Shown here one piece after another: positions 27,802 to 63,095 of a stretch of 64,000 bases of DNA. The stretch lies in the NCBI GenBank assembly GCA_041674545.1, contig JBAYVO010000001.1, positions 89,057 through 153,056 on the forward strand, given 5' to 3'. The notes below the pieces were generated by a model. It had not been told where the DNA came from and did no database searches. It saw nothing but the letters and a program-made list of their open reading frames with translations. How positions within the stretch are numbered: the first letter of the stretch is position 1; every line of letters starts with the position of its first letter. The position numbers were made by a program, and so were the translations under genes. Source of the stretch: Candidatus Nanopelagicales bacterium. Its GTDB lineage: Bacteria > Actinomycetota > Actinomycetes > S36-B12 > UBA10799.

Positions 27802-28626
27802 CTACTCGGCAGAACCGCGCGCAGCCTTCCGGCGAGAAGCCGCGTAAAGACGGTTACACTCTCTGCAAGTGCCATTCTTAGACAAAGAGTTCTCTAAATC
27901 CAAAAAATGTCCGTCTTCGCATACAATTCTGTCCAAGCCCTGCTGATAGCAAATTTCAGCACGACGAACAAAAAAAGTATCACGAGACTTAATTACCTTG
28001 TCTCGCTCACACTGCTTGCACACAGCAGTGCCATTCTCATTAATTCGAATACCAACTTCCGCAAGCACGTGTCCATGATTACAAGTCTCACGCTTGGTCA
28101 GCGACAACTTCACCCGGCCACGCCGAGCACTCTCTTCAGACGTGGTCCCATCCAGGTGCGCGGGATTCACGCACCGACGAATACCGCAAATGTCATTGAG
28201 ATGGTCCACCACCTCACCCTCCTCAAGAGGGCGGTTGTAGAACTCGAAACTCCAGCGGTGCGCGCCGACCGTCTTGTACTTGCCGTCGACCTTGACCGAA
28301 AACCTGCCGTAACCCTGATGCGTCAGGTGACCGGTCCAATACCAATGGCCGTCGCGGTCCTTCTCCACCCGGCGAAGGAACTTGGTCTCCAGGTCTTCAT
28401 TACGCGGCCCGTACTCACGGCGGGGAACATGCTCGTACGCCACGGGCACCGCGTAGATGATCACCGAACCACGGGGAGTGCGGGCGACCTCCAGACGCGG
28501 AGACTTCAAGCCCGGCTCGGTGATCTGCTTGCGGCGCCCGTCCTCGTAGAAACGACGCGGCCTGGTCGGGATCCCCATCTGACGAATCAGAACGTCGCGC
28601 AGCGGGACGCCAGCGATCTCAATCAA
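27802..28626 (-). CDS. Free-standing HNH homing endonuclease
   Basis: HQGYGRFSV...VGAHRWSFE...VVDHLNDICGIRRCVNPAHLDGTT (HNH_3-type) plus C-terminal CxxC pairs. Locally low GC. Inserted next to the major tail gene. Confidence 0.85.
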   Translation of the reverse strand: MIEIAGVPLRDVLIRQMGIPTRPRRFYEDGRRKQITEPGLKSPRLEVARTPRGSVIIYAVPVAYEHVPRREYGPRNEDLETKFLRRVEKDRDGHWYWTGHLTHQGYGRFSVKVDGKYKTVGAHRWSFEFYNRPLEEGEVVDHLNDICGIRRCVNPAHLDGTTSEESARRGRVKLSLTKRETCNHGHVLAEVGIRINENGTAVCKQCERDKVIKSRDTFFVRRAEICYQQGLDRIVCEDGHFLDLENSLSKNGTCRECNRLYAASRRKAARGSAE

Positions 28627-28669: not shown

Positions 28670-28939
28670 TCAGCTGTCGCGGTCGACTACCACAGATTCA
28701 ATGAGGTCACCGGAGATGTCGAAACGGTGCAACACGAGGGCAACGTCCTTGCCCTCGGAACGCATCCGGCGGCGGCAATCCTGGCACGCAAGCTCAATAA
28801 GATTGTCTGTGGTGACAGGAGCAGTCTGACCAGCAAGTCGGAGTTTGGCGAAAAGCTTCCGGGGGCCGGTGGGACACCGAAGCTCGACCTCGCGTGCGCT
28901 ATCCACCGACATGCCCCAGACTTCGACCGAAGCCGTCAT
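28670..28939 (-). CDS. Hypothetical protein (89 aa)
   Basis: ORF with a 4-nt overlap onto the glycosyltransferase gene. Only 3 Cys, so no firm Zn-finger call. Confidence 0.5.
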   Translation of the reverse strand: MTASVEVWGMSVDSAREVELRCPTGPRKLFAKLRLAGQTAPVTTDNLIELACQDCRRRMRSEGKDVALVLHRFDISGDLIESVVVDRDS

Positions 28940-30132
28940 GATGACAATCCGTCTAAGGCGCCGCGACGCAGCATATCCTGGAACTGCGCTGACTCAGGCT
29001 TCTCCGGTTTGCGGCACATCCGCATACGTGTAGCGACCTCGACTCCTCGACTGCCCGCAACAGTTTCCAAGCGATCACAGAACCGCTCCAGGACCCGGGT
29101 CCAGCTCACCATGTTCGGGAGCGTGCGAGCGGCAACCTCGCCGCGACGCGCCGCCTCAGAACGATTGTTGTAGATACCGAGCATGATCTCCGCGAGATGG
29201 TCCTCATCCGCGATAGCCGCTCGCGCCTTGAGACCGGAGAACGTTTCCTTCATCTCGAACCGCAGCGGATAGGCGTACTGATCGCTCATCCACTGCGCGT
29301 GCCCGCCCACGTTGGTCGCCACGACCGCACCACCGGTGGAGGCGAACTCGATGGCCGGTCGGTTCTTTCCCTCGCCCCAGGACGGCGCCAGCAGCACGTG
29401 CGACTCACGGTAGAGCGCGTGAACGGCCTCGACCGACCACATCTCCCCGATGATCTTCAGACCCGAACACCAGGACTCCATGGCCGGATGCAGACCGGGA
29501 TACGTGGTCTTGAGGACCAGCTGCGCATCTTGCAACTCGCCCGCGTCGCGCAGCTTCTTGAACGAATTGATCGACACCCACGGGTTCTTGCGTGACGACA
29601 GAGCGCCCAACATGAGAAAACGGAACGGGGACGCATTCCAGTCACGCTGATGCGGAGGAAGTGTCGTCACCCCACCCTGAAGTACAGAAACTTTGTCGTG
29701 GTACGGGCTCAGAGCTGACTTGGACACTTCGTCGTAGGCGAACACCGCGTCGAAGTGTGTCAAAGCCTTGCCCAGGTGATCGGTCACCCGAAACGCGTGC
29801 TCGCAGTTCGCCTGATTGACCTCATCGACGTTGTCGAGAGAATCCCACTCCCACATCGACCACGCCACCGACACCGTCGACACCGAGTACAACCCCGCCG
29901 ACTCAGGAGAGCGCGCCAGCTCCTGGGGGCAGCGATGCGAAATCAACAAATCCACATGCTCGGGAATGGGCTTGGTGATTAGGGCCGCGACATCCGCCGG
30001 GAGCGGGGGATGAACACCGGAAGGGTGCAGATACACATCCGCGCCCCACGCCATCAGCGCCTGAGCAAGTTCAATACCATCTGTGCCGTAACCTGTTTGA
30101 CTGTTCACCGGGCACGACAAAAGTACCTTCAA
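28936..30132 (-). CDS. GT-B fold (GT4-like) glycosyltransferase
   Basis: HVLLAPSWGEGKNRPAIEFASTGGAVVATNVGGHAQWM matches the GT4 EX7E region. Start moved to TTG 30132, which has AAGGAG 6 nt upstream and follows the upstream stop at 30146. The track's ATG 30210 would overlap the upstream gene by 65 nt. Confidence 0.8.
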   Translation of the reverse strand: MKVLLSCPVNSQTGYGTDGIELAQALMAWGADVYLHPSGVHPPLPADVAALITKPIPEHVDLLISHRCPQELARSPESAGLYSVSTVSVAWSMWEWDSLDNVDEVNQANCEHAFRVTDHLGKALTHFDAVFAYDEVSKSALSPYHDKVSVLQGGVTTLPPHQRDWNASPFRFLMLGALSSRKNPWVSINSFKKLRDAGELQDAQLVLKTTYPGLHPAMESWCSGLKIIGEMWSVEAVHALYRESHVLLAPSWGEGKNRPAIEFASTGGAVVATNVGGHAQWMSDQYAYPLRFEMKETFSGLKARAAIADEDHLAEIMLGIYNNRSEAARRGEVAARTLPNMVSWTRVLERFCDRLETVAGSRGVEVATRMRMCRKPEKPESAQFQDMLRRGALDGLSS

Positions 30133-30145
30133 GGTATCTCCTTGC

Positions 30146-30670
30146 TCAACCTGTATTAAGCCCGTAATGGCATTGAAGACGTACGCCTTCCGGCCAGTCC
30201 GAGACCTCATAGACGTCGGGGAGCGACATCAGTTGCGAGCCCCATACTCGCAATCCCGGATCTCCCGAAGCGCTGCCCCACACTTCGGAGAAACCATCAA
30301 CCCGATGCAACACTGTCTGGAAATGCTCCCAGACCATACGAGCCCTAGATTCCGCATCATCTCGCAGCGGGGGCCCATTCAAGGACTCGCGCGAGCAATC
30401 CGCGTAAATCTCCAGCGACAGCCGTGGAAACCGAGCTGTGTTGTGCTGATTAGGACGTGTCCACGCGCCCTCTTCACGTAAAACTGCAGCGGCTTTCCCC
30501 GTTCCCTCCACCACTGCCTGAAGCTTGCGAACGAACAGCCAGACTCCAACAGGCGCAGACCCCACGGGGGAGGCGAGCGCACTCACCACACCGGGAACGG
30601 TCGACAATTTGCGATGAGCGGCGACTGCGAGATCATTGCGCGCCAACAGAGGAAACAGCGAACTTGTCAC
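30146..30670 (-). CDS. Neck/tail terminator-like protein (by position)
   Basis: 174-aa ORF, last of four consecutive coupled neck genes (GTGA overlap at 30667-30670). Function from synteny only. Confidence 0.45.
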   Translation of the reverse strand: MTSSLFPLLARNDLAVAAHRKLSTVPGVVSALASPVGSAPVGVWLFVRKLQAVVEGTGKAAAVLREEGAWTRPNQHNTARFPRLSLEIYADCSRESLNGPPLRDDAESRARMVWEHFQTVLHRVDGFSEVWGSASGDPGLRVWGSQLMSLPDVYEVSDWPEGVRLQCHYGLNTG

Positions 30671-42130: not shown

Positions 42131-42145
42131 GTCAGGGTCCTACCC
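42128..42145 (-). repeat. Start-associated junction motif copy
   Basis: Minus strand GGGTAGGACCCTGACATG. The TAG is the stop of the EndoVII gene. Confidence 0.8.
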
Positions 42146-42973
42146 GTCCAGCGAGGACCGCGCGTGGCGGAGGATGTACTCGTCGAACGCCGCTCCGGAA
42201 ATGTTCATAGTCTCCAACCGACCTAATGTGGTGTTACAGCTGAAACACAGCAGCTGACGAAGACACAAACCGCAGGACTGCCGACCCGGACAACACGCGT
42301 GGTCGTGATCCACAGCCAACCGACGATCACCCGGCGAAGCCCCACAAATGGCACAAACCCACCCCTGAGCATCCGCCATACGTTCATAATCTTCAACAGT
42401 AAGTTTATACAAAAACCAAATTCTACTTACCCAAACCTGATCTAAATAAAGCTCACGCTGATCGTCAGTCATAGAGTCATAACGAACTTTACGTTCAATT
42501 TTACGACAAACTCGGCATACGACCTGATATCCAGATTCGACCGTCTGGTCTTCATAAAAACTAAGCACAGGCTTGCTCTCACCACAGGTAAGACACACCC
42601 GGACGCCATCGACAACCGGGTTTTCCTGATCCTTGATCGAAGGAAGTACATAGTCCGGACCACGCCACTTCTCCGCCTGCTTGGCGTTGGCCTTGCGCTG
42701 CAGCGCGCGGGCACACGGGAGACAGCGTCCGGTAAGACGCCTACCCTCACCGCGATTCTTCTTCACCAGCTGCGCCAGCTCCATCGGAAGCTTCTCCCGG
42801 CACTGCGTGCAGGTGAACTCCGGATCCTCAGGCGTGAGGCCACGGTTGGGCTGACGCTCAGACGGCGTCTGCTTCATGCCAGGGCGGGGGATACCCGGGC
42901 GCCCGGACCCGGGACGAGGAACTCCCTTCCCACCCTTAGACGGCGGACTGCCAACAAAAACTGCGTCTTCCAC
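42140..42973 (-). CDS. Recombination endonuclease VII-family homing-type endonuclease with N-terminal Zn ribbons
   Basis: LAVDHDHACCPGRQSCGLCLRQLLCFSCNTTLG is the EndoVII signature. Several upstream CxxC pairs. First gene after the capsid terminator, with a low-GC patch. Confidence 0.8.
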   Translation of the reverse strand: MEDAVFVGSPPSKGGKGVPRPGSGRPGIPRPGMKQTPSERQPNRGLTPEDPEFTCTQCREKLPMELAQLVKKNRGEGRRLTGRCLPCARALQRKANAKQAEKWRGPDYVLPSIKDQENPVVDGVRVCLTCGESKPVLSFYEDQTVESGYQVVCRVCRKIERKVRYDSMTDDQRELYLDQVWVSRIWFLYKLTVEDYERMADAQGWVCAICGASPGDRRLAVDHDHACCPGRQSCGLCLRQLLCFSCNTTLGRLETMNISGAAFDEYILRHARSSLDG

Positions 42974-46875: not shown

Positions 46876-49800
46876 TCAGTCATCCTCCTCATCAGGGTTC
46901 CACGCGAGCGCTGCCGCCTTGACCTTAGCCAAAGCTTCCGCCTTGCCCGCAGCTACCACGAACCTATCTTCAATCGTCAAACCACGGATGTTTGTTACAC
47001 CCTTGCTCTTCAGGTAGTCGATGAACGCCTGACGTTCCGACTGACTGTTAAACACAGCAAGTTCGATGTCATCCAACACCGAGATTCCATGCTTAATCAT
47101 GGTCTCGTTATGGTCTTGAATGCTGGTAGCTTTCTCTAAGCTAAAATCAGACTTAATTTTACGATTGTCAATTTTACCCCAACCATCGCCCTTAAAGGAA
47201 TAGTTGGTAGTTTTTGCCAACACACGCGGGTTTACATAAATTTGAGAGTAATCAAAGTTATTGCCGGTCTGATTAGTGCGAACAAAGTTAAAATGTCCAG
47301 CGCCGTTAGTAATGTCCGGCGGAGAAGACTGACCTTCAATAACCTTGCCCATCATACGAGGACGCGCTTCGTTCGACCACAGACCGCCCGTACGAAGAAT
47401 CGTACGCATATCACCCATACCGATGGAGTGCGTAGCAAAAGGCTTGTTCTTGAGGTACTCCCAGTCCGCATCAAAACGATCCCAGTACGGGTTGCCGCCG
47501 ACTACCTCAGGACGCGCCACGTTCGGATGCGAGAACTTCGGCATGTACTTCTGCTTATCTACAAACTCTTTAACTTGCTCTTTGCTGGTCAATCGAGACC
47601 ACGCCTCGCGCCAACGCTCCAGCTCTTCTTTAGCCTGAAGCGCAGGAGTGCCCTCCGTGCCGCCCGGCAAATTGTCCCGGACGTAATCCACCACGTCTTT
47701 GTGCTTACCCTGCCCCTGGTCCCTGCGATCCGTGAGCACGCCGTACAGGTGGCGCCAGTAGAACAGCTCCATGTCGGTATCCTCCGCAGCAGACAGGTCC
47801 AATCCCATCTGCTGCAGCGCAGTCATAGCTGCCTCGGTTCCCGTATGCGTGCCGTCGTAGTTGCGCACCTTGATCTTCAGACCGCCCTGCTGAGACCGCC
47901 GCACGCCATCTTCGTCGTGCCACGACCGGTACTCGATTTCTGTACCGTCAGGGAGTTCCACAACATACGTTGTACCCGACTGAAGAATTTGGCTATTCCA
48001 GCCCGATGGCTTAGATCCATTCAGAACCATATTGCCGTCATCGTCGATCGAGCCCTGCTCGTAGTAGGACACAACCTTCTTGACCTTGAAACCGTCCGAC
48101 GGAGCTGCAATCTCCGGCGTGATAGCTGGCCTCTTCGGAGGCTCGAACGGGAACGGGTCAAAATCACCGTGCTTAGACTGACCGCCAAAATCGATTAAAC
48201 GCTGTACGTCTTTGATTTTGCCATCGTAGTACGACAGCAAATTCTTGTACGTTTCCTTGGCTTCTGTCCAGTCAGCAAACTGTGATGGATAAATACCCGA
48301 TTCGACCTCAGCAAGCTTCTTCTCAACATCCGCTTTCATGGTATTAAAATTAGCCATGTGCGACGAGTTGAAGTTTTGATCTCCTAACCCGTTGTGATGA
48401 GAAACAGTCTTAGCAGCAGCAAGCGAGAACTGCGAATAGCTAGTAGCTCCCGCGTTACTCAAAAACTCAGTCTTTTGATAACTGTCTGAAACATCTCCTA
48501 CTGTAACCGTATTGCCAGCGCGAGCCACAAGCCACTTGCGCAACTCCTTGTCCGCCTGCTTACGGACCAGCGCAGTCATATGCAGCTCGGTACCACCCTG
48601 CGACGTCTTCACCTCTTGCGCCAGAACGTAGTTCTCCTCCAGCGCATTGCCGCCAAAGAAAGTAGAAGCTCCCGCATGTCCGGCTTCCTTCACCCGGGTG
48701 AGATGGTCCTCCGAAAACCCGGAGAACACATGCTTGCCGAGGCTCTGGCTCTTGGCTGGCTTCTCGCGACCCAGCTGCGAGTAAATACCGTCCCAGAACT
48801 TCTCAAAATCCTCGGACAATGCGTTCTTACGCGCCAGCGCCTGCGACACCAGGTCAGGCAGATCCTTGGCAGACGTCCATCCAAAGTTGGTGCGGTTCTG
48901 TAATCCCTCAGTGATTGTCGAACCCCAGGACGCATCCGATACCGACGACGTCTTCCGTGCCTGCGCCATAGATGCGAGGTACAACGAGTCCACATCCGCG
49001 TCGGAATACTTTCCTGACAACGCAGCCTTGTAGACCTTGTCGTAGTAAGGGGTGGTCCAGTCGGACAACTGCCCGACCTTCAGCTGCATAGAGCCCGGCT
49101 TGCCGAAACGCACGAAGGAACGGGCGATGTCGATCGGCATCACGCGCTTGCCATCGGGCATCAACAGGAAGTTGTTGCCGTGAGCGTCATCGTTTGCTGT
49201 GGCCCAGTCCTGCACGTGCGCGGCCATCAGATCCTTGAGTGCCGAGATGGGCAGGTCAACAGGATCAGTGTTCATCAAGGTTCCCTGGCTGGGGACCTTG
49301 GCCTGGAACTGGCCGAACTTGCCATTAAACGTTCCCAGCTCCGACGCGGCAACCCGGAATCCCGCAAGCTCCGCCAACTTGTGGCTGGCGTGCTCGATCT
49401 CAGCGCGGAACTTCTCAGGAGCGACCTTGAACAGGAACGGGTTGCCCTGCTCATCGGTCAGCTGCCAGATCTCCGAAGACGAGCCACCACCGAGCGGAGG
49501 CTGCTCCGCATTCATGGTGTAAGTCTTCTTCTCAAGCTTCAACGCATCATGCACAAAGCCCAGCAGTGCAGGAACGTTGTAGTGTGAATCCTCGTAAATC
49601 TTGCCCAGCAAATCCTGCATCTGCTGCTTGGCAAAAGCCGGGCTCTTGAACGTGGCAGAACCTTCAGGGGCCGCAGCTACCGCGTGCAGCGCGACCAGCT
49701 GTGCCTTTACCTCGGGCGTCTGACTAGTCAAGAACTCAACAGACTTGTCACTGACACCAACATGGTTCAAATAAGTATCAAGCTGACTGTTGTTCCATCC

Positions 49801-52800
49801 CTGCACCGCAACCTTGGAATAATCCATTTCAGGAAAACCTTCGGGCAACGGGACTGCATAGCCGGGAGCGTACTTCTCCACTGACGGAAGAATAGGCGAA
49901 GAATGAATGTCGCCCTCGTTGACATTTTTCTGTCCAAGATACGAGAGAGAATCAGTTCCCAGCTTGTTCCCTGAAGCGTGTGCGATTGCCCAAGAACGCT
50001 TTTGGCTACTGCTTAACCCTGTAGGATGCTGCATGTTTGCGGCAAGCAAATACGCATCTACAGTCTCACTCTGCCAAAGATGCCAAGAGTCAGTGTTGGG
50101 CCACGATCCGTCAACTTTGATTCCAGCAGGAATCTCGCCTGAGACTAACGGCGGCATCTTCTTCTTGACGAAGCCGGACGCGTTCACCGGGTTTTCAGGA
50201 GAACCCGGGTGCACCTTGCGCTTACCGTGCTGCTGAACCTTCTTGGACTCGATCTCGTAAGCCTTGTCCCACTCACCGTTGGCCCACGCGTACATCCACG
50301 CGACCAAGTCTTCCTTCTTGGTCGAGCTGTTCAGATGCTTGGCTGCAATGTTCTCGAACCCGGAATCCTTGGCCCACTTCTTCGCAGACGCCAACAGCAC
50401 CGGCTTCTCGACCCAGTCCGGCCTGATGTGCCCCGCCACCATGAACGGCTGCAACACCGGGGCGTCCGCATCGAACATGTGCGACGGCGTAGACGCGACC
50501 GGAGAGTTCTGCGGTGGCACCCAGAACATGTCACCGGACTCCACGGCGTTCATGAACTCATCGATGTCCATGTTTGGGCCACTGGCGTCCAGCGTGACGT
50601 GCATTCCCTCGCCGTCGGTCCAGGTGCCCAGCTGCACCCCATTCCAATAACCGTCCGGCGAGACCTCATCGGGCGCGTCCGGGGTGTTGGGGACCGGGTC
50701 GACCGCAGGAGCCACCGATGGGCCGTCGTAGACGCTGTCGAGCTTGGAGACCAGCTCTTCCGGGCTGTAGACCTTCAGCACCGAGCCATCGGCATCGATC
50801 TTCTGGACGAGACCGTCAGGATCGAACTTGTAGTGCGCCACCTGCGGGGCAGCACCCGTAGACAGCAGGTTCCCCTGGCCCAGGCCAGTCAGATACACAA
50901 ATTGGTTATTCTTCGCAGCAGTCTGGAAAGCCTGCGAGAACGGCGTGGTAGTCGGCGCCCACGCGTCCTGCATAGAAGCGTTGCCTGCTTTGGCTACCAG
51001 GTCGCCCAGGTACGGAGACTGCAACGCAGCGCCCGCCTGATCCTCCAAAGACGGGGGCCCGGAATCCTCCAGATCTCCCTGGAACACCGCCGTATGCGTC
51101 TGGAATGACAGAGTGTCATCCATCAGGTTCATGGCAAAAAACGATGGTGAAATGCCCTCAGGCCCGTTCTCGCCTACCTTGAAAACGTTTCCGTTGTACT
51201 GATGCTTGTAATCGCCGATCAGGAACCCGTTAGGGTCCTTGAGCGCCTCGGTCATCCAAGAGTCCGGACTCACCTGCAACGCCGTGGGAGCAATACCCTC
51301 GCTGGTGAGATAGGGCTTCACCACATCAATATGCGCCATTGACTCACCGGATGGCGTCGCAATGAGCACCGAGCCGTCCGGGTACACGCTGTAAGTAGAA
51401 GTCCCTGAAGCGTAGTGACCGACCTGCACTCGATTCACGTAGACAGCATTAGGATCCGTCGGAAGATCCGACAGCTTATCCCAAGTACCTAACTCAAGCA
51501 TACTCTTGACAAGATCAGAATCTGTCATATGAACAGTCTGACCAGAAGACGTGTTAATGCTGTGCGCTGTTCCGTCCGGGTAGACCTTGAGCGCCATACC
51601 ACCCGGAGAGGTGTAGAACCCGACCTCAGGCAACTCCGAACCCGCAAGATCCGTGCCTAATCCGGAGGTCTGGAACTTGTCACCAATCTTGTCGGCGATC
51701 TGTGCAGAACTCAAATTCTTGAAATCTCCATCGTTGATTTCAACAACAGAGTTCTCTTCAGGATTGATCTCGAAGTAAGTTCCGCCCTCGAAATAACCAT
51801 CATCGGTGTCGATGTACCCGGAAGAACTCCAGAAATGGGTTTCACCAGTCTTGTGCGCCTGCTGGAACGCGTCCGCAAAAGAATTGTCAAAAATGCCATC
51901 CGTGTCCTTGGCATTTTTGACCAATTCCTGCAGCGAAAGAGAACCGCCCGACACGTTGGTGGTCGGCGGACCACTGAAGAAATCTTCCACCGGGTCCGGC
52001 GCGCCCACATCTACAGGAGTGACATCCGGATCCGAATCAGGTCCAGTCACAGGCGTCGGGTTGGACGCCATGTTGTCGGCCTTGCCCTGCAGGACAGCGA
52101 TAACCGCTTCCTTGAGCTTGCCGTAGTGAACCTTGCCGTTACCGCCCTTAAACGGAGCAGACAGCGGGTCCGCCTCGATGAAGGTCTTGAGATCCGCCTT
52201 GGCGAGCGGAGAGTCAATCGCCTTGAGCGGCGCCTTCACGCTAGTAGAGCTGGAATTCTTCACCGCATCGATAGCGTCGAGAATTTCCTGCTTGGTAACG
52301 CTCTTCCCTGCAACGGACACCGTAGACGGAGCAGTCGGCGCTTCCGGCGGATTGTTGAGCTGCAGAACAGCATCGTCCATGTGCTTCTGCAGCGCATCCG
52401 ACACGGCCTGCTTCCACGGCGCCGAGTCCAAATGCGAATCGACACCGAGGCTTGCTCCGAACCCGTTCTGGCCCATTCCCTTGAACGGATGTCCCGCAGG
52501 GAGATGGCCCATCAACGTGTAGAACTGACCATCCGGGTCCAATCCCAGCGGCGGGCCATCCCACAAGCTCTTGAGCAACTGCAGCTCGTTGACGCTGGCC
52601 TCGACAGTACCCAGCTGCACCTTGGGAGAATCATCCGGACCGGGCGTCTCGACAGGACCATTCTGACCTGGACGTGTCTTCACATTCAGATAGTCATTCA
52701 ACCCATCGAACAGCACCTTGTTCATCTCATGAGCCGGAGTACGGCCCACGAACTCGCTCCAGTCCACGCCATACGCGAGCGGGTTATGCCCTACTTGCGC

Positions 52801-55800
52801 CAGCTTGCCGGACATCGTTTCACCCTGATCAAAATCGATGTCGGCAAAAAAGTCCTGCATCTCCTTGATCTGCGCCTGCGACGCCAGCACACCCTGGATA
52901 CCCGGGCTGGCGTGCGGAACCTCGGGCAGATCCGCAGCCGGGTTCGGAACAGGAGGGTGATCTGTCTGGTGCTTATCCAGAGCATCCTGCAGCAGCGCGA
53001 TCACAGCAGGCTTGAGCTTGCCGTAATGAACCTTGCCGTTGCCTCCCTTGAAAGAATCAGTCAACGGAGACGTGTTGGCGTGTCCCTGCAGGTCGACACC
53101 CGACAGCGGGGAACCAATAGCCTTGAGCGGCTTCTTCACACCGGTCTCAGACTTAGGCGACTTCTGCAGCGCGTCAAGCGCTTCCGCCACCGCCTGCGGG
53201 GTGACCGGAACACCGCCGAACGAAATGAAACCCGGAGACGCAGGCGCGTGCGTGTGTCCAGAGCCCTGCGGATCCACCGCGTGCAGCGCAGCGTGGATCG
53301 CTTCATGATCAGAAAGCCCGAGCGAGGACTGATGCTCTTCGAGACCGTGCGACTCCTGCAGGTGCGCCACGGCGGGAGCGGCATCCAACGGCGTAGCACC
53401 GGTCTGCTGATGCGCCTTCTGCAACGCGGCAATCAGAGCAGGCTTGGTCTTGTTGTTGTAGTACGCCTTGTACGGCGCGGCTACCTCGTGGAACTTGCCT
53501 GCCGCCAGCGGGGATCCCACGCGCTTGAGGTCCGCCGCGACGTTGCCCGACGGGTTCGCAGACAGAGCGTTGATCGCCTGCTCCAGCTGCGTCGACGTCA
53601 TCTCGAACCCACCGACCAACGCCTTCCCCGAACCCGGGAGAGGCTGGGTGTTCTGGATCGACACGCCCTCGTCAGTGACGTTGTTGAGGCCCGAAAGCAG
53701 CTGCGCGCGAGCAGCCGGATTGTCCGCGCCGCCGACCTTCTTCGCCTGCACACCCGCGCCCTGCGGGTTGTACTTGATCAGATCACCATCGGGCTGCAGG
53801 ACGTAGAGCGTGTCCTTGGACTTGCCCGACTTGTAGACCTGCGAGCCCTCCTCCATCTGCACGGAGTGCGCGCCGACCGAAAACAACGACGGACCGTTCT
53901 TGACCACACCGCCAGGACCGCCCTCGGGCGCTTCAGGCTGGCTGAACTTCGGACGCACCGGAGCGGACATATCCTCGACGACATCACCGGTCTCAGGGTC
54001 CGTCACCGGCTCGGCATCCGCCGGGACAGCAGGCGCGCGACCGTCGAGACCGAACTCCTTGATGTCTTTTAGAATTCGCTTGTCACGGTTGACATTCAGG
54101 AGACTCTCGGCTTCCTCCACAGAGACCTTCTTGACCGAAGCAGTCTCCGAGCCTCCCGGCTCGTACGGAGAAGCGTCATCGGGCAGCGGCTGACCGCCGG
54201 TCCGCTTTCCGACGTACATGCGGACCTTGCCGCCGCCGGAGCGCTTGAAGTCGCCAAGATATCCGGTGATGTCTCCTTCGAGACCGGTCTCTTCCCACAG
54301 CTCCTTATGTGCGTTCTGCTGCGGAGAAAGATTGGCTTCGATACCGCCCTTGGGAAACGTGTGCTCGTAACCTGCGTAGTGATCCTTGGGCTCGTAAATC
54401 CAGATGTAACCGTCAGGCTCGATCAGCGCGATGCCCGTAGCCATCCGGCCCTCGGTGTCCGGCAACGCAGGCTCACCCGGGATCGCGACATCCGGCTTGG
54501 CCGTGAAGTCCGGCATCTTCTGACCGTTGGCGTTCTTCTTGGACTGCGGACGATCGCCAGGCTCGGAAGTGTTCTGCGATCCCGAGGATCCCGAAGCGTT
54601 CTGCTGTCCAAGGACATTCTGCTGCTCTGGGGCCGGGATTCCCTTGGGGACAGCCTTGCCACGATCGCCGGGCTCGGCCTGATTTGGAATCGACGGAGCT
54701 TCAGGAGCAGAGCCCCCGCCCGCCTTAGACGCGTTGAACTTGCGCTGCCAATCCTCATTGAAATCGTCGTCTTCAACTTCGTCGACATCACCGAGGCTGC
54801 CGTTTGCAATCTGCTTTACCGCCACCTGTTGCAGCGGAAAACTCTTCTTAAAGTCAGACTTGTAAATTTCACCAGTTCCGTCTGGATTAACCTTTACTCC
54901 ACCCCAGTTGGAATTATCAGTGAAAACGTAAGAACCCTCTGGGAGCGTTCCATTCTTCTTCAGATCCTCATTCATTTCCATGAGCGGACCCGGACCATCG
55001 GGATCCGGAACATCAGGATCGTCAGAAATTTTTGTTACTGTTCCGTACTGCTTGTGCAGAGAAAGGAACTGAGCTGTCTTAGCTTTATCGCTATCGACAG
55101 TCTCACCCTTGTGAATAGAAGTAGAAGAACCATCCTGGTGAACAATAACCTGAGTATCTTCATCACCAGGCATGTCAACTTTATAAGTGCCTGGCTTCCA
55201 GTTCAGGTCGATAGAACCGCCCTTGGGCGTGGCCTTATCCGCCGCCTTCTGAGCCTTGTTGATGGCCTTAGCCTGCTTAGCAGAAACCTGCTTCACATTT
55301 GGCGAAGGCAGTGCTCCACCAACATCCGGAATCTTCATTCCAGTCTTAGTGTCGTAGTAATAGCCCGACACGTGCTGAAGATGACCGTTGACCATTCGCG
55401 TGTACGCCTTCACGTGCACGATCGTGGCCGCAATATAGTCGTCTCGATCTTCAGGAGACACAGTCATCGCCCACTTGGCGTACGCCTGCATTCCCTGCGC
55501 GGTCAGTCCGACCGTCGGCGCGCTAGCCGGGAAGTAGATCACCAGCGAGCAGCGACAGTTTGGGTGACGCGGAGGCGTACTCAACACCTTGGTGTAGGGA
55601 ACCGGCTCAGAATCAGGAACCTCGAACGGCTCTCCGAGCGGCACGTGCTGACCGTGCAAACGAGTACACATGGGGCACGGAGGGTTCACCAAATCGAAGC
55701 GAGCCACCCACAGCTTGTGTGCTGTCTCAGAAAGCAGCTCCGCCAACGCTTGCAGGAACTGCTCGGTAGCCGCACCACGACCCGCCTGCACCGCCGAGAC

Positions 55801-56241
55801 AACCGCCAGCTCCGCGCGGCGCAGCATCTCCGCGAGCGCCTTAGCCTTGTCCTTGGCACCCTTGGCTACCGCAACCTGGCCAGCCAGGAAATCCGTGACC
55901 AGCTGCGTGCCCAGCTCCTCGCTGGAGAACACCACCGTGTCCATGAGCGCGGTCGGCAGATCCAACGCCTCCGCCTGCGCCCGGCCGAACCGAGCACCCT
56001 CATCGACACCCGCCGACAGCGCACGACGGATGAGCGCCACCGAACCCGCGAGCAACGCAGTGGTGACCAGCGGAGAGCCATCTTCCTCTGACTGCGCGTC
56101 GGTCAACCGCTGGCCGTAGAGCACCCGCATGTCCGCCACAAACTGCTGCTCCGCCGCAGCCGCGAACGTGCGCGAGGTATCCACCAGACCCAGCAGCTCT
56201 ACGAGATCCTGCTCGATCGGCGTCAAAGCCGGGGTGGTCAC
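46876..56241 (-). CDS. Giant MuF-like minor head protein fusion (3121 aa) with Nudix-like, kinase-like and PARP-like ART-like modules
   Basis: Uninterrupted 9366-nt ORF coupled to the portal gene (TAGTG). MuF/SPP1 gp7 motif PPCPMCTRLHG...PPRHPNCRC at aa 187-231. Nudix-like FPKGGIE...KELWEETGL at aa 629-654. Kinase-like GGGSS...FKV...DDAHGNNFLL...IDIARSF at aa 2250-2376. H-Y-E ART-like motifs at aa 2935-3050. Confidence 0.9.
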   Translation of the reverse strand: MTTPALTPIEQDLVELLGLVDTSRTFAAAAEQQFVADMRVLYGQRLTDAQSEEDGSPLVTTALLAGSVALIRRALSAGVDEGARFGRAQAEALDLPTALMDTVVFSSEELGTQLVTDFLAGQVAVAKGAKDKAKALAEMLRRAELAVVSAVQAGRGAATEQFLQALAELLSETAHKLWVARFDLVNPPCPMCTRLHGQHVPLGEPFEVPDSEPVPYTKVLSTPPRHPNCRCSLVIYFPASAPTVGLTAQGMQAYAKWAMTVSPEDRDDYIAATIVHVKAYTRMVNGHLQHVSGYYYDTKTGMKIPDVGGALPSPNVKQVSAKQAKAINKAQKAADKATPKGGSIDLNWKPGTYKVDMPGDEDTQVIVHQDGSSTSIHKGETVDSDKAKTAQFLSLHKQYGTVTKISDDPDVPDPDGPGPLMEMNEDLKKNGTLPEGSYVFTDNSNWGGVKVNPDGTGEIYKSDFKKSFPLQQVAVKQIANGSLGDVDEVEDDDFNEDWQRKFNASKAGGGSAPEAPSIPNQAEPGDRGKAVPKGIPAPEQQNVLGQQNASGSSGSQNTSEPGDRPQSKKNANGQKMPDFTAKPDVAIPGEPALPDTEGRMATGIALIEPDGYIWIYEPKDHYAGYEHTFPKGGIEANLSPQQNAHKELWEETGLEGDITGYLGDFKRSGGGKVRMYVGKRTGGQPLPDDASPYEPGGSETASVKKVSVEEAESLLNVNRDKRILKDIKEFGLDGRAPAVPADAEPVTDPETGDVVEDMSAPVRPKFSQPEAPEGGPGGVVKNGPSLFSVGAHSVQMEEGSQVYKSGKSKDTLYVLQPDGDLIKYNPQGAGVQAKKVGGADNPAARAQLLSGLNNVTDEGVSIQNTQPLPGSGKALVGGFEMTSTQLEQAINALSANPSGNVAADLKRVGSPLAAGKFHEVAAPYKAYYNNKTKPALIAALQKAHQQTGATPLDAAPAVAHLQESHGLEEHQSSLGLSDHEAIHAALHAVDPQGSGHTHAPASPGFISFGGVPVTPQAVAEALDALQKSPKSETGVKKPLKAIGSPLSGVDLQGHANTSPLTDSFKGGNGKVHYGKLKPAVIALLQDALDKHQTDHPPVPNPAADLPEVPHASPGIQGVLASQAQIKEMQDFFADIDFDQGETMSGKLAQVGHNPLAYGVDWSEFVGRTPAHEMNKVLFDGLNDYLNVKTRPGQNGPVETPGPDDSPKVQLGTVEASVNELQLLKSLWDGPPLGLDPDGQFYTLMGHLPAGHPFKGMGQNGFGASLGVDSHLDSAPWKQAVSDALQKHMDDAVLQLNNPPEAPTAPSTVSVAGKSVTKQEILDAIDAVKNSSSTSVKAPLKAIDSPLAKADLKTFIEADPLSAPFKGGNGKVHYGKLKEAVIAVLQGKADNMASNPTPVTGPDSDPDVTPVDVGAPDPVEDFFSGPPTTNVSGGSLSLQELVKNAKDTDGIFDNSFADAFQQAHKTGETHFWSSSGYIDTDDGYFEGGTYFEINPEENSVVEINDGDFKNLSSAQIADKIGDKFQTSGLGTDLAGSELPEVGFYTSPGGMALKVYPDGTAHSINTSSGQTVHMTDSDLVKSMLELGTWDKLSDLPTDPNAVYVNRVQVGHYASGTSTYSVYPDGSVLIATPSGESMAHIDVVKPYLTSEGIAPTALQVSPDSWMTEALKDPNGFLIGDYKHQYNGNVFKVGENGPEGISPSFFAMNLMDDTLSFQTHTAVFQGDLEDSGPPSLEDQAGAALQSPYLGDLVAKAGNASMQDAWAPTTTPFSQAFQTAAKNNQFVYLTGLGQGNLLSTGAAPQVAHYKFDPDGLVQKIDADGSVLKVYSPEELVSKLDSVYDGPSVAPAVDPVPNTPDAPDEVSPDGYWNGVQLGTWTDGEGMHVTLDASGPNMDIDEFMNAVESGDMFWVPPQNSPVASTPSHMFDADAPVLQPFMVAGHIRPDWVEKPVLLASAKKWAKDSGFENIAAKHLNSSTKKEDLVAWMYAWANGEWDKAYEIESKKVQQHGKRKVHPGSPENPVNASGFVKKKMPPLVSGEIPAGIKVDGSWPNTDSWHLWQSETVDAYLLAANMQHPTGLSSSQKRSWAIAHASGNKLGTDSLSYLGQKNVNEGDIHSSPILPSVEKYAPGYAVPLPEGFPEMDYSKVAVQGWNNSQLDTYLNHVGVSDKSVEFLTSQTPEVKAQLVALHAVAAAPEGSATFKSPAFAKQQMQDLLGKIYEDSHYNVPALLGFVHDALKLEKKTYTMNAEQPPLGGGSSSEIWQLTDEQGNPFLFKVAPEKFRAEIEHASHKLAELAGFRVAASELGTFNGKFGQFQAKVPSQGTLMNTDPVDLPISALKDLMAAHVQDWATANDDAHGNNFLLMPDGKRVMPIDIARSFVRFGKPGSMQLKVGQLSDWTTPYYDKVYKAALSGKYSDADVDSLYLASMAQARKTSSVSDASWGSTITEGLQNRTNFGWTSAKDLPDLVSQALARKNALSEDFEKFWDGIYSQLGREKPAKSQSLGKHVFSGFSEDHLTRVKEAGHAGASTFFGGNALEENYVLAQEVKTSQGGTELHMTALVRKQADKELRKWLVARAGNTVTVGDVSDSYQKTEFLSNAGATSYSQFSLAAAKTVSHHNGLGDQNFNSSHMANFNTMKADVEKKLAEVESGIYPSQFADWTEAKETYKNLLSYYDGKIKDVQRLIDFGGQSKHGDFDPFPFEPPKRPAITPEIAAPSDGFKVKKVVSYYEQGSIDDDGNMVLNGSKPSGWNSQILQSGTTYVVELPDGTEIEYRSWHDEDGVRRSQQGGLKIKVRNYDGTHTGTEAAMTALQQMGLDLSAAEDTDMELFYWRHLYGVLTDRRDQGQGKHKDVVDYVRDNLPGGTEGTPALQAKEELERWREAWSRLTSKEQVKEFVDKQKYMPKFSHPNVARPEVVGGNPYWDRFDADWEYLKNKPFATHSIGMGDMRTILRTGGLWSNEARPRMMGKVIEGQSSPPDITNGAGHFNFVRTNQTGNNFDYSQIYVNPRVLAKTTNYSFKGDGWGKIDNRKIKSDFSLEKATSIQDHNETMIKHGISVLDDIELAVFNSQSERQAFIDYLKSKGVTNIRGLTIEDRFVVAAGKAEALAKVKAAALAWNPDEEDD
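52072..53604 (-). repeat. Three diverged copies of a ~65-85 aa module inside the MuF giant
   Basis: Protein copies are (E/Q)xIxAL...(K/R)xxGSPLA...FKGGNGKVHYGKLK(P/E)AVIA(L/V)LQ at aa ~880-945, 1010-1092 and 1310-1390. DNA identity is visible between cttgagcttgccgtagtgaaccttgccgtt (~52111) and cttgagcttgccgtaatgaaccttgccgtt (~53011). Confidence 0.8.
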
Positions 56242-59802: not shown

Positions 59803-60462
59803 CTAAGCGGTCATCGCGTAGTAGTCCAGAGGACCCGGAATCCACAGCTCCGATGCCAGCCGGTACAACTCACGGCTGAACGAATCCGACGCAGCTCCGT
59901 ACTTCTCGCAAAACACAAACCCCTCGGCCAACAGCTCCGGGATGCTCATCGAAGCACGCTGCGAGTACTTCCGAGCAGCCGCAGCGCCCGAGATCCCCGA
60001 CGCCTTCTCCAAGCGTCGCAACACCGCCTGATACCCCGCCTCCAGCGAACTCGGGTACCGACGATGGATGGGCACCTGGAACAGCAGGTGCCCCCACTCG
60101 TGCGTAAGAATGTCTTCCCAACAATCTCCTACGAGAGCGTTGGTTTCACGCAGTCCTAGAAGCTCGACCTCAGACAACGGGTTCAGCAGTTTGCGCTTGT
60201 TGATCTGCAAAACTCCCTCAACGGTAGTCATGCAGAAGGTAGAAGCATGCGCGTAGTCGTCGCCTAGATCTTTAGCGTGAACCTTCTTAATGCCTGCGGC
60301 CAAGTACGGCCACGCTTCACTCAAGTCGTACAGGTGCTGACGAAGCTGAGGAAGACGCGAGTACTTCCGCAACTGCCAGCTAAACGGGATGAGCAACTCA
60401 TGCCCGGGAGGACGCGCCGCGCTCGCAATCGGCTTCACCGACGGAAGCAACGACATAGACAT
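59803..60462 (-). CDS. Putative zinc metallopeptidase (HExxH)
   Basis: 219 aa with ILTHEWGHLLF. Occupies the slot where a small terminase subunit is usually found. Confidence 0.5.
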   Translation of the reverse strand: MSMSLLPSVKPIASAARPPGHELLIPFSWQLRKYSRLPQLRQHLYDLSEAWPYLAAGIKKVHAKDLGDDYAHASTFCMTTVEGVLQINKRKLLNPLSEVELLGLRETNALVGDCWEDILTHEWGHLLFQVPIHRRYPSSLEAGYQAVLRRLEKASGISGAAAARKYSQRASMSIPELLAEGFVFCEKYGAASDSFSRELYRLASELWIPGPLDYYAMTA

Positions 60463-60485: not shown

Positions 60486-61079
60486 TCATTGTTGTGCAAG
60501 TTTCGCCCATACAATTACGTTCGAGAGGTAACGATGGGCTGCGCGATCCAGCGTTCCGCCGCACGTGATCAAGCGCAGCTCGGCACCAGAAGTGTTCTGG
60601 TACACATCAGCTGTGGGAAATTCATTCTTGTCAATAGTTGACGTTCGGTACACCTCGAACGCCGCGACAGTCCCATCCTCGCGCTGAACCTCAATGCGAT
60701 CACCCTCGACCACGCTCTTGAGGTTGGCGAAGATTCCCTGCTCACCGCCACCGTTGACGTGCCCCAAGATGACGGCCGGTCCCTTAGCGCCCGGACGAGG
60801 GCCAAGGTTGTACCAGGACGCCAGCATGGGCTGCTCGACCGGAGGCTCCAAATGTCCGCCCCGAGCATCGAGTCCCAGCCCGTCAACCATGACAGGACCA
60901 TCGATGTTGCGCGCGAACACCGATACATTCACCGGACGCGGCTGCACACCAGGCAGAACATCAGCAGGCGCAGACTGCGCGGGCGTGCTCGGCGCGTCCG
61001 GAGCCGCTGCAGTCCCACACCCAGCCAGGACTGCAGCGAACACCAGAACAGAGGCCAAAAGCCCCGCTACACGACTCAC
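60486..61079 (-). CDS. Class F-type sortase, lipoprotein
   Basis: Lipobox AAVLAGCG. ASWYNLGPRPGAKGPAVILGHVNGGG (His), FANLKSVVEGDRIEV, AELRLITCGG (Cys) and RYLSNVIVWAKL (Arg) give the actinobacterial class F sortase layout. Confidence 0.8.
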   Translation of the reverse strand: MSRVAGLLASVLVFAAVLAGCGTAAAPDAPSTPAQSAPADVLPGVQPRPVNVSVFARNIDGPVMVDGLGLDARGGHLEPPVEQPMLASWYNLGPRPGAKGPAVILGHVNGGGEQGIFANLKSVVEGDRIEVQREDGTVAAFEVYRTSTIDKNEFPTADVYQNTSGAELRLITCGGTLDRAAHRYLSNVIVWAKLAQQ

Positions 61080-61681
61080 TCCGTCGAACCGTCCCCGGTC
61101 TCAGGCGCATCGTTGGGAACCACGACAACATCCGAGCCGCCTGGAACCACCGTGACCGTAGTCAGAGGCGGAGCTGTGGTGGTCGGGGTGACAGTCACAG
61201 TGGTCGGCGGAGCCGGAGCGCACGCCTTCAACTTGTCATCGATCAGTAGATTGAGCTTGGCCTGCGCGTCTGCCAGAACCTTCTTCAGCTCCGTCAAAGG
61301 CGTGGTGCTTGCAGCATTGATAAACGCCGTCACCGCAGCAACGAAATCACCCTGAGCCTTGGTCAGCTTGGTCTGCAGGTCCAACAGAACCGCAACCGAC
61401 GCCTTCGCTGCAACCGCCGAAGCGTACGCATCTCCAGCCTTCGCAAGCACATCCTGCTTCAAAAGAACCTGCGTCTGCAAACCCGCGAGCGCGGTATCCG
61501 CGTCAGCCAACTTGTCGGAAGCGTCGACTACCACCTGAGCCTGAGCCACCACACGAACTGTCGCGGTCACACACCCAGCAGAGTCCGGGCCAACGGCAGG
61601 TGCTGCTGCCGCCAGCGGAGCAAACACTGACAGCGAAGCGGCTACCAAGCCGCTCACCACCAGCAAACGGAACTGCTTCAT
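61076..61681 (-). CDS. Secreted Ala-rich helical protein ending in a sortase-like APETG motif
   Basis: Signal peptide MKQFRLLVVSGLVAASLSVFAPLAAAAP, a helical Ala-rich middle, a Pro/Thr-rich tail and the C-terminus ...VVVPNDAPETGDGSTE. GTGA overlap with the sortase start. Confidence 0.7.
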   Translation of the reverse strand: MKQFRLLVVSGLVAASLSVFAPLAAAAPAVGPDSAGCVTATVRVVAQAQVVVDASDKLADADTALAGLQTQVLLKQDVLAKAGDAYASAVAAKASVAVLLDLQTKLTKAQGDFVAAVTAFINAASTTPLTELKKVLADAQAKLNLLIDDKLKACAPAPPTTVTVTPTTTAPPLTTVTVVPGGSDVVVVPNDAPETGDGSTE

Positions 61682-61729: not shown

Positions 61730-62413
61730 CTATGCAGTCTCACTTACACAAGTGTAAGTAGGAAAGCTGTCGTCCGCGTTTGATCGTGTGCAGCGGATGT
61801 TTTCCAACGGGCTAGAACTAGGAAAAATGAACTCCGCTGGCGGCTGACCCGGAGCACCCGCAGGTCCCTGCGCCCCAGGCGGACCCGTGTCGCCCTGCGC
61901 CCCCTGCACGCCCTGAGGACCCTGCACGCCCTGGATACCCTGCGCGCCAGCGGTGCCCGGCTCACCCGGAGTACCGGCCGTACCTGGCTCACCAGGCGTA
62001 CCCGCGATACCCGGCTCACCAGGAACACCCTGCGGGCCCGTAGCACCGGGGATGCCCGGAATGGGGGCGATCTTGACCCGCTCAGCCTGCGAACACAGAC
62101 CGGACGGCAGAGAACTCTTGGCATCGGAGTCCGCGCACGCTTCAGAGATTTGGCTCGCCAGCGTCTTAGCCTGCCCAGCGGTGGCATCGCGCTGCTGCAC
62201 CACCAAATCCTTCTGGGTGGTGACATTTTCGACCTGGCGGTTGCTGGTCTTCACGGACAACACCAACGCCGTAGCCGCAACGATGAGAGCAACCCCGACC
62301 AGCACCGGCCACAGACGCTTGAGCAGCGAAAGAAAATCCGGACGGTTATGTCGAGAACGATTTTTGGGACGGTTCGCGGGTACGCCCGCAGGCATCGGGA
62401 ACGCTCGGGTCAT
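61730..62413 (-). CDS. TM-anchored collagen-like protein
   Basis: Basic N-terminus, a TM segment ([20 protein letters not shown]), a short coiled coil, 24 uninterrupted G-X-Y triplets and a ~35-aa Cys-containing C-terminal knob. Confidence 0.8.
61842..62057 (-). repeat. Collagen-like G-X-Y repeat tract (24 triplets)
   Basis: [72 protein letters not shown]. Confidence 0.9.
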
Positions 62414-62859
62414 GTCAAGTCACCACAGTTCGGAGGCGGTGGCAGAGGTGCGGCTGCCCGAACCCTCTCCAATTCACGGATTGCAGAAATATACTTCTGA
62501 GTCTCACGAGCAGCCGCTTCACGATCACCAGCCAGCGTGGCGGTCAACAGCTCCACCTGAGCCTGCGTCTCCACGCGCTGAGCTTCACTGCGATCAGTCA
62601 GCGCCTGAGAAACAGCTTTATTGTATGTAATCTGGCAGGAAGTAGTTCGATAGTAACTAATTCCGGAAAGAACAACTAAGATGAGGATGGCTAATCCAAC
62701 AAACGAACGGAAAAGCTCAAACTTGGTAGCCCTCACCCTCTTACCTCCGGTCGTTGTTGCATCAGCCTGGGCAGACCGAATGGCCAGCCAACATGTAGCC
62801 CAACCCAGCACAAAGCCGCCACCAGACCACAGCAGTGCGGAGTACAGGGAAGGAGCCAT
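62410..62859 (-). CDS. Membrane protein (2 TM) with a C-terminal coiled coil
   Basis: 149 aa with 4-nt overlaps to its neighbours. Confidence 0.6.
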
Positions 62860-63095
62860 TAGTCGACCTTTGCCGGTTCCGGATCTTCCTCTTCTTTATC
62901 CTCTTCAGGATTGCCGTTCTTGTCCTTGTTGGACCTACGCGACAGGGCTAACGCTCCACCAACAATAGCCATAAAAATACCATTGATAGCAACGTCCGGA
63001 CTGTAGTCCTCAACAATGAACTGCGCCGCAAAATTAATGGCCCAGACCACAGTGACGACAACAATGATCGCCGTCGCCAGTGGCTTAGGGATCAC
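62859..63095 (-). CDS. Small 2-TM protein with a highly charged C-terminus (holin-like topology)
   Basis: 78 aa: two hydrophobic helices followed by SRRSNKDKNGNPEEDKEEEDPEPAKVD. Confidence 0.55.
   Translation of the reverse strand: MIPKPLATAIIVVVTVVWAINFAAQFIVEDYSPDVAINGIFMAIVGGALALSRRSNKDKNGNPEEDKEEEDPEPAKVD

Follow-up and report, generated by a model that had tools for sequence, protein, structure and literature searches.

The sortase and its coupled partner

We investigated a 64,000-nucleotide stretch of a contig assigned to a Candidatus Nanopelagicales bacterium (GCA_041674545.1, contig JBAYVO010000001.1, positions 89,057 to 153,056), here called the window. Two overlapping genes on its minus strand encode a class F-like sortase with a lipoprotein-type N-terminus and a dedicated secreted partner, which is its predicted substrate. 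An earlier note on this DNA had reported both open reading frames (ORFs) and their GTGA overlap, and we found them as it described:

60486..61079, minus strand: sortase, lipoprotein-type, class F-like, 197 aa (ORF, Pfam, NCBIfam, fold, invariant His/Cys)
61076..61681, minus strand: dedicated partner, predicted substrate, 201 aa (ORF and translation, structure model, family invariants)
61076..61079, minus strand: GTGA overlap of the partner stop and the sortase start, gap of -4 nt (sequence read directly)
61076..61126, minus strand: C-terminal extended class F sorting motif of the partner, VVVVPNDAPETGDGSTE, residues 185-201 and stop (profile of 135 C-termini, T and G invariant)

The GTG start of the sortase (61079-61077) overlaps the TGA stop of the partner, indicating that the two genes would be translationally coupled.

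The sortase begins with a hydrophobic segment (residues 4-22) ending in a lipobox (VLAGC, with Cys21), and its catalytic domain covers approximately residues 47-194. Residues 86-194 score 72 bits with the Pfam family Sortase (PF04203), whose cutoff is 26.6 (E=4.9e-20). The best class match in NCBIfam is class_F_sortase (NF033748; E=6.4e-48), whose score of 162.3 bits lies 3.7 bits below the curated cutoff of 166, and the next-best sortase class reaches only 28 bits, about 134 bits below the class F score. Bacterial homologues at 43-61% identity, from genera that include Actinophytocola, Pseudonocardia, Actinomycetospora and Amycolatopsis, carry the name class F sortase in NCBI and UniRef. The earlier note had called the protein a class F sortase with a lipobox; the Pfam family, the best class and the lipobox agree with that name and the curated cutoff does not, and in our view the sequence is most fittingly termed class F-like, or placed in class F as a divergent phage branch.

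An AlphaFold2 (AF2) model of the sortase, made from 24 homologues, has a mean predicted local distance difference test (pLDDT) value of 86.6, mostly above 90 in the catalytic domain. Foldseek results against PDB revealed sortases of classes A, C and E in all 50 matches listed, most of them with probability 1.0, with TM-scores of about 0.5-0.57 and identities of 12-21%. Membership of the sortase superfamily and the sortase fold are, at the level of the predicted model, confirmed for the product of 60486..61079. A sequence search of PDB with the single protein returned no match, and a profile search of PDB returned only marginal matches, all to class C. Since no solved structure matches by sequence, this sortase branch is without a structural representative.

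Every one of the 212 related sortase domains has His107 (VILGHVNGG) and Cys173 (LRLITCGG), which also align with a class C sortase. In an hhalign alignment with a manually entered sequence of S. aureus SrtA they pair with His120 and Cys184, at low confidence. Of the catalytic triad proposed in the earlier note, these two residues held, while its candidate Arg183 (RYLSN) occurs in only 11 of the 212 relatives. Other positions are far more conserved: Lys151 (211/212), Arg169 (209/212), which is four residues N-terminal to Cys173, Tyr184 (206/212) and Asn187 (198/212). The enzyme retains all the residues that are invariant in the family. In sortases the canonical catalytic Arg lies about 13 residues C-terminal to the Cys, on strand beta8. 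The low-confidence SrtA alignment stops one residue short of Asn187, and its extension by one residue pairs Asn187 with SrtA Arg197. On this alignment, the class F branch may have a non-canonical active site, with Asn187 at the beta8 Arg position and Arg169 near the Cys.

The partner begins with a hydrophobic, signal-peptide-like segment (residues 6-24). In the AF2 model it is followed by a core of residues 35-153, an antiparallel helical hairpin with pLDDT of 83-96 that ends at Cys154, and by a disordered Pro/Thr stalk (residues 161-201). Cys37, in the motif GPDSAGC, is at the start of helix 1, and the return helix has Cys154 at its end; these positions would suit a disulfide, which probably staples the modelled hairpin. 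Searching for similar folds with the partner model turned up nothing beyond generic helical hairpins with non-significant scores, from which no function can be derived. In the C-terminus ...VVVVPNDAPETGDGSTE, APETG corresponds to residues 192-196 and is followed by DGSTE and the stop. According to the hydropathy profile there is no hydrophobic segment after residue 24, and so none after the motif, and the C-terminus is acidic (DGSTE), without a positively charged tail. The LPXTG-type pentapeptide of the canonical tripartite signal is present in the partner; the hydrophobic domain and the basic tail are absent. Sequence and AF2 model both agree with the earlier description of a coupled secreted protein with a signal peptide, a helical body, a Pro/Thr stalk and APETG near the C-terminus. 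In a search for genes with the motif in the window and 7.7 kb beyond it, the partner was the only real gene found. Thr-Gly is the bond cut by sortases; the predicted scissile bond is Thr195-Gly196, and VVPNDAPETGDGSTE is a candidate cleavage peptide.

A programmed frameshift or read-through that would fuse the partner to the sortase, with the signal peptide of the sortase serving as the missing tail, was considered and rejected. The stop/start relation differs among loci (4-nt overlap, 1-nt gap or 5-nt gap), so that the frame relation varies.

The partner family and its extended motif

A hidden Markov model (HMM) search of 1.84 billion representative proteins for the partner family gave 48 matches, and 46 family members were inspected. 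All 46 end in an x-x-x-T-G motif. In 42 of them the protein stops 1-11 residues after TG, and in the other 4 it runs on into a hydrophobic segment with a basic end. Only Cys37, Ala109, Cys154, Thr195 and Gly196 are invariant in the alignment, where the mean column identity is 25%. The earlier note had let its reading depend on conservation of the motif among homologues of the partner, and its Thr and Gly are thus found in 46/46. Wherever the available context is long enough, a sortase gene is seen to follow the partner.

The loci with related sortases that were fetched comprise 32 IMG/VR viral loci, 80 metagenome loci and 80 loci of bacterial genomes. Below, L numbers denote fetched loci, P numbers denote members of the partner family, and L196 is the parent contig of the window. 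Genes in the fetched loci were called by a heuristic based on GC content at third codon positions (GC3), and the IMG/VR label "viral" was checked through the flanking genes. Upstream of class F sortases, the same extended motif occurs at 135 distinct loci, and the C-terminal consensus of the 135 distinct partners is V-x-V-[VT]-P-x-G-[GA]-[VAP]-x-T-G-[GD]-G-[GPS]-[TL]-A. Judged by this profile, the class F signal is an extended one, P-x-G-[GA]-[VAP]-x-T-G-[GD]-G. Motif variants follow the sortase tree, with 43 changes against 87.5 expected at random. The number of residues after TG is bimodal, being either 1-12 (median 5 in 56 distinct sequences) or 26-63 (median 40 in 79), with none between.

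In many members of the partner family, an additional calcium-binding module of the Excalibur type (DxDxDGxxCE) separates the Pro/Thr linker from the sorting motif. It was seen in L011, L015, L016, L020, L028, L033, L034, L197, L202 and L203, and Excalibur (PF05901) is on record in Pfam for the partners of L197 and L202. The partner in the window is a minimal form without this module.

Tail-less partners in phages and bacteria

To class the tail state, a script examined the same-strand gene that ends beside each sortase, with a tail-first classifier. The partners were distributed as follows:

Viral contigs: 21 tail-less, 5 tailed
Metagenome contigs: 7 tail-less, 34 tailed
Bacterial genome loci: 34 tail-less, 47 tailed (81 classified pairs)

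The idea that the tail-less state is phage-specific was rejected. In bacterial genomes 34 of the 81 pairs are tail-less, and phage-type neighbours were found at only 1 of 26 such loci, L181 of Pseudonocardia parietis DSM 45256, which is the same element as the IMG/VR locus L008. It belongs to a prophage in which M15-type lysins lie on either side of the tail-less pair. Because of these two counts, we read the tail-less architecture as native to actinobacterial class F systems; as far as the sequences tell, it is enriched on phages rather than invented there. The missing anchor pointed out in the earlier note is indeed missing in the window partner, and it is no peculiarity of a phage protein, being equally absent in 42/46 family members and in the 34 chromosomal pairs.

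On actinobacterial chromosomes there are many class F sortases whose tail-less partners end in ...KGGVETGFGGTAR or ...GGVETGGGATARS followed by the stop. Examples among L116-L195 are L160, L162, L169, L173, L177 and L178 (Amycolatopsis), and some chromosomal tail-less pairs are tandem duplicates.

An approximate neighbour-joining tree was built from the 212 sortase domains. On it, the tail state changes 14 times against 47.9 at random (minimum of 38 in 1,000 shuffles), and the viral or genomic origin changes 6 times against 27.2. The sortase has a lipobox in 55 of 64 pairs with a tail-less partner and in 32 of 87 with a tailed one, as raw counts that ignore kinship; 2 of the 9 tail-less exceptions are lipoboxes missed by the regular expression. 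The bimodal length, the stability on the tree, the 42/46 majority in the family and the association with the lipobox suggest that the tail-less state is functional and not a product of decay. We propose that the membrane-retention tail may be dispensable for the lipoprotein-type branch of class F. Tail-less signals appear to be a general, apparently undescribed trait of lipoprotein-type class F systems.

In the closest relatives of the window pair the situation is different. The partners of L005, L006, L202 and L203 contain ...P[NS]DAPETG(D/E)G..., followed by a hydrophobic segment and a basic end; that is, these lineage partners have the same ...PNDAPETGDGSTE and then the canonical tail. Members of the motif subgroup (L002, L197, P0127 and P0138) read likewise and also end in a hydrophobic and basic tail. 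The sequence of L201 starts only at its sortase, and its partner is not readable there. Since lineage relatives carry the motif before a canonical tail, it is tied to classical sorting signals, and we conclude from these sequences that it is probably a genuine sorting motif. Every other readable partner in the window lineage keeps the canonical tail, and for this reason we interpret the tail loss in the window as a recent and precise deletion. The shortened protein halts at the end-point of natural tail-less members, one of which (P0152) also ends in ...TGDGSTE.

Phage context of the gene pair

The window is part of a siphovirus-type actinophage. A terminase, a Mu-type portal (Portal_Mu), a MuF/NUDIX polyvalent protein, a Phage_cap_E major capsid protein and an SPP1_Dit-like tail component are encoded on the minus strand, as is the pair, which lies immediately upstream of the terminase. 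Between 63935 and the portal, intergenic gaps range from -4 to 48 nt. These contiguous, co-oriented terminase, portal, capsid and Dit-like genes bear out the phage origin that the earlier note had assigned to the sortase. The terminase has tblastn matches in 363 phage records. The nearest cultured relatives of the backbone are Microbacterium phage Magritte (40.6% terminase identity) and Streptomyces phages of about 130 kb, such as LukeCage and StarPlatinum (about 32%), and the order of terminase and then portal is similar in them; unlike the window, Magritte has glycosyltransferases and hypothetical genes upstream of the terminase and no sortase. In a scan for promoters and terminators the matches were at chance level, giving no evidence for an independent moron-type transcription unit, which was set aside. 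The parent contig (ENA ERZ27247358, k141_2474284) is 186,198 bp long; the window and 10 kb beyond it consist of phage genes with about 60% GC. It is probably a phage genome that was binned into a Candidatus Nanopelagicales metagenome-assembled genome.

Four genes flank the pair:

59803..60462, minus strand: 219-aa protein with HEWGH (HExxH, metalloprotease-like) at residue 121, between the sortase and the terminase
61730..62413, minus strand: collagen-like protein, type II membrane-anchored, 227 aa (Pfam Collagen, E=9.7e-16; hydropathy; GXY run)
62410..62859, minus strand: membrane protein with a coiled coil and C-terminal Cys, 149 aa (phrog_10261, E=6.7e-4; transmembrane-like residues 49-67)
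62859..63095, minus strand: 78-aa protein with two transmembrane-like segments and an acidic C-terminal tail (hydropathy; tblastn)

The collagen-like protein has a basic N-terminus, a transmembrane segment (residues 36-54), 24 GXY triplets and two Cys pairs. An end similar to C-x-R-D-x-D-S-P-D...Y-x-C, with the C-terminal Cys pair, is conserved in L199 and L203. A second collagen-like protein is encoded on the parent contig (L196 1617-2183), near the endolysin and beside tail-fibre-like genes. In the 149-aa protein only the segment of residues 49-67 is above the transmembrane threshold. The 78-aa protein has a holin-like topology with its two hydrophobic segments, and its PHROG matches are weak. 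The 219-aa protein had no match in Pfam, NCBIfam, PHROG or PADLOC; a gene 32-34% identical to it occupies the same position in L005 and L006, it is replaced or absent in L202 and L201, and its place in the cassette module is uncertain. No defence-system match was found by PADLOC for seven cassette proteins. Beyond the end of the window there are tail-fibre-like genes (tail-fibre PHROGs) and, about 9 kb upstream of the partner, a Peptidase_M15_4/PG_binding_1 endolysin. In the window lineage about 15 genes, tail fibres included, separate the pair from the endolysin.

Two ORFs of the window are unusually long. One (46876-56241, minus strand), directly after the portal, encodes the polyvalent protein of 3,121 aa with weak MuF-like and NUDIX domains. 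The other (16237-26115, minus strand; 3,292 aa), upstream of the Dit-like gene, is presumably the tape measure. A group-1 glycosyltransferase (28936-30210), an HNH endonuclease (27802-28626) and an endonuclease VII-domain protein (42140-42973) are interspersed in the structural region, and an SNF2-family helicase (2689-4374) is at the low-coordinate end, all on the minus strand.

The cassette in other viral contigs

At least 32 IMG/VR contigs carry related sortases, and the survey of phages suggested in the earlier note therefore shows that the pair does not stand alone. In L005, L006, L201, L202 and L203 the genes come in the same order as in the window, namely (collagen-like), partner, sortase, terminase, Mu portal and NUDIX polyvalent protein, and the terminases of L005 and L006 are 80% identical to that of the window. 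A homologous or analogous collagen-like gene lies directly upstream of the partner in L006, L199, L202 and L203. Within 2.5 kb upstream, such a gene was found in 5 of 25 assessable viral loci (plus L199, L202 and L203) and in none of 61 genome loci. The 149-aa protein has tblastn matches in L002, L006 and L019 and family members in L003 and L028, and the 78-aa protein has tblastn matches in L006, L007, L012 and L019, in each case about 2 kb upstream of the sortase. The three accessory genes (78-aa, 149-aa and collagen-like) thus accompany sortase pairs repeatedly, on viral contigs that otherwise diverge.

Flanking genes of the viral loci were clustered into families, which were then checked with HMMs. 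The following were found near the pair:

Amidase_2: L007 and L011; by family L009, L019 and L020
Peptidase_M15_4: L003; by family L008
CHAP: L022; by family L016
GH25: L031; by family L012
PHROG holin: L031; by family L016, L017 and L030
Terminase: L015

Many viral loci thus have HMM-verified endolysins or holins within 6 kb of the pair. In L199 the order is tail protein, collagen-like, partner, sortase, three small genes, Amidase_2 and tail-fibre/depolymerase genes, and in L198 an M15_4 lysin is upstream and Lsr2 downstream. The neighbours FAM7 ("M15-like") and FAM62 ("transglycosylase-like") had been called by eye and have no Pfam match, and they were not counted as lysins. On phages, the cassette is usually beside tail-fibre and lysis genes.

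In L004, a 139-kb IMG/VR contig, there is a 1,027-aa ORF (827-3910, plus strand) upstream of the sortase pair. Judged by eye, it resembles a protein of FtsK/ATPase type with an intein-like insertion (Cys at the start and HN-Ser at the end).

Proposed mechanism and alternative explanations

Taking these observations together, we consider it probable that the pair is a phage-borne class F-type sortase cassette with a role in envelope remodelling, working as follows. The partner and the sortase would be made from one tightly coupled message; the overlap is observed, and near-equal amounts of the two proteins may be expected from it. Judging from their N-termini, the partner would be exported through a cleavable Sec signal peptide and the sortase as a lipoprotein on the outer face of the cytoplasmic membrane. 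The partner would fold as an antiparallel hairpin of about 120 residues, with a probable Cys37-Cys154 disulfide, and present its C-terminus on a Pro/Thr stalk of about 40 residues. By established sortase chemistry, the enzyme would recognise P-x-[G/D]-[GA]-[VAP]-x-T-G-[GD]-G-[ST], cleave between Thr195 and Gly196 through a thioacyl intermediate at Cys173, and transfer the partner to an amine of the envelope. The acceptor is most likely a peptidoglycan precursor, the alternative being a cassette neighbour such as the membrane-anchored collagen-like protein.

Because the cassette lies close to tail-fibre and lysis genes in the late region, its most likely role would be covalent remodelling of the envelope of the infected cell late in infection. 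This could mask receptors, exclude other phages or condition the wall around lysis, and the evidence does not separate these possibilities. The context lends circumstantial support to a link with the collagen-like membrane protein and with the lysis/tail-fibre region.

Several points weigh against this interpretation. The class F score is below its curated cutoff, as given above. The site of the canonical catalytic Arg appears to be occupied by Asn187 and Arg183 is unconserved; catalysis may therefore proceed differently than in characterised sortases. The tail loss in the window is recent and could be mildly deleterious. In classical work on sorting signals, loss of the hydrophobic/charged tail leads to secretion instead of anchoring, and a tail-less protein might be released. 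The late timing of expression is inferred from gene order only. Finally, deleting four class F sortases of Actinoplanes together produced no phenotype (PMC13251363).

The position of the cassette also admits an accessory of lysis. The pair would be expressed with the holin and endolysin and would attach or process the hairpin protein, perhaps with the collagen-like and coiled-coil proteins, thus altering wall integrity or coupling membrane and wall at lysis, with no part in exclusion. The verified Amidase_2, Peptidase_M15_4, CHAP and GH25 endolysins and the PHROG holin, a few kb away on the same strand in many viral loci, agree with this, as do the gene order of L199 with its Amidase_2, the M15_4 endolysins near the pair in L003 and L198, the M15_4/PG_binding_1 endolysin on the contig of the window, and the small proteins with one or two transmembrane segments that recur beside the pair. 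However, in the window lineage the pair adjoins the terminase, with the 15 or so genes already mentioned between it and the endolysin, and chromosomal class F pairs of the same architecture in bacteria have no lysis genes around them, with an exception at 1 of 26 loci. We know of no lysis mechanism that employs a sortase, and accessory cargo, too, is classically located between tail-fibre/lysis genes and the end of the genome. We regard a lysis accessory as unlikely.

It is improbable, in our view, that the recent deletion crippled the substrate, ending productive sorting and leaving a partner that is merely secreted, in a pair heading to decay. Such an outcome would agree with the tail kept by all the other members of the lineage and motif subgroup listed above, and with the secretion that follows tail deletion in classical sortase work. 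Yet the deletion ends where natural tail-less partners such as P0152 end, frame, motif and stop/start coupling have all been preserved, the sortase keeps all family-invariant residues, and elsewhere the tail-less state is a stable majority (42/46 members; 14 changes on the tree).

We find it very doubtful that the sortase does not turn over, either holding the partner C-terminus in a long-lived covalent (thioacyl) or tight non-covalent 1:1 complex anchored by the lipoprotein, or trimming a C-terminal peptide as a maturation protease: the near-equimolar synthesis implied by the overlap, the lipid-anchored sortases that go with tail-less partners (55/64) and Asn at the canonical Arg position (198/212, by a low-confidence alignment), which might slow the resolving step, would fit, but lineage sortases about 50-68% identical serve tailed partners with full signals, which favours ordinary chemistry, thioesters are hydrolytically labile, and we know of no precedent.

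Comparison with known systems

The envelope-remodelling cassette that we favour is not categorically new, being still a sortase system. Its new aspects are that it is phage-borne, dedicated and coupled, and that it has an extended motif and an optional tail. The earlier note knew of no described phage sortase-substrate pair, and our searches agree. In tblastn with three queries against 50,697 GenBank phage records, no match to the sortase or the partner was found in a cultured phage; PHROGs has no family for the cassette; and the literature search returned no described phage sortase or phage sortase-substrate pair. Within these searches, the cassette is undescribed in cultured phage genomes, PHROG families and papers.

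The closest known group is that of the class F sortases (NF033748; IPR042001), with which the window enzyme shares the best HMM match, the sortase fold, the His and Cys motifs and a substrate ending in x-T-G. Actinomycetes carry several copies of class F sortases. The window enzyme differs from Cutibacterium (Propionibacterium) acnes SrtF in being phage-encoded and lipoprotein-anchored and in scoring just under the class cutoff. It also has a dedicated, coupled and tail-less partner instead of a housekeeping set of substrates, and Arg is not the conserved residue at the canonical Arg position. According to reviews, P. acnes SrtF is the only characterised member of the class, and its reported specificity is LPXTG (PMC8225981), unlike the extended P-x-G-[GA]-[VAP]-x-T-G-[GD]-G motif found here. 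In a 2026 study the physiological roles of the class are still described as unknown (PMC13251363).

Canonical sorting by classes A and E resembles the cassette in its secreted substrate, its C-terminal x-T-G and its membrane-associated Cys transpeptidase, and relatives of the partner carry the full tripartite signal. In S. aureus SrtA, and in Streptomyces SrtE1/E2 with the chaplins, this signal consists of LPXTG or LAXTG, a hydrophobic domain and a basic tail. In contrast, the window partner and the tail-less majority of its family end 1-11 residues after TG, and the gene pair is dedicated and coupled.

Among phage proteins, T5 Llp and Ltp of Streptococcus thermophilus phage TP-J34 are surface/exclusion lipoproteins that act as stand-alone blockers of the receptor or of injection, with no enzymatic partner. 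The likeness is that they are phage-encoded, exported and lipid-anchored and could modify the surface of the infected cell. No sequence or family relation to proteins of the Llp/Ltp type turned up in the PHROG and PADLOC scans.

A phage that brings its own surface-protein ligase and substrate would represent a new kind of envelope-modifying cargo. As a self-contained enzyme-substrate pair with a short soluble tag, the cassette could also serve as an orthogonal tool for protein ligation. For class F, a group of sortases without a known physiological role, the cassette offers a handle: together with its relatives it supplies a predicted cognate substrate for each enzyme and a recognition motif unlike LPXTG. 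The lipoprotein-type branch would be a natural experiment in which the retention tail is optional, counter to the textbook tripartite signal.

As a tentative proposal that goes further, lipoprotein-type class F sortases and their coupled tail-less partners might form a distinct mode of sortase action, in which the substrate is captured without membrane retention of the precursor. The product would perhaps not be anchored to peptidoglycan, and could be ligated to another protein of the envelope, for instance the membrane-anchored collagen-like one, or remain as a covalent sortase-partner adduct with the lipid of the enzyme as its anchor. Phages would have captured such pairs repeatedly into the tail-fibre/lysis region, to build a late covalent structure of the envelope. 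If this is true, the phage cassette would provide the first tractable phenotype for class F sortases.

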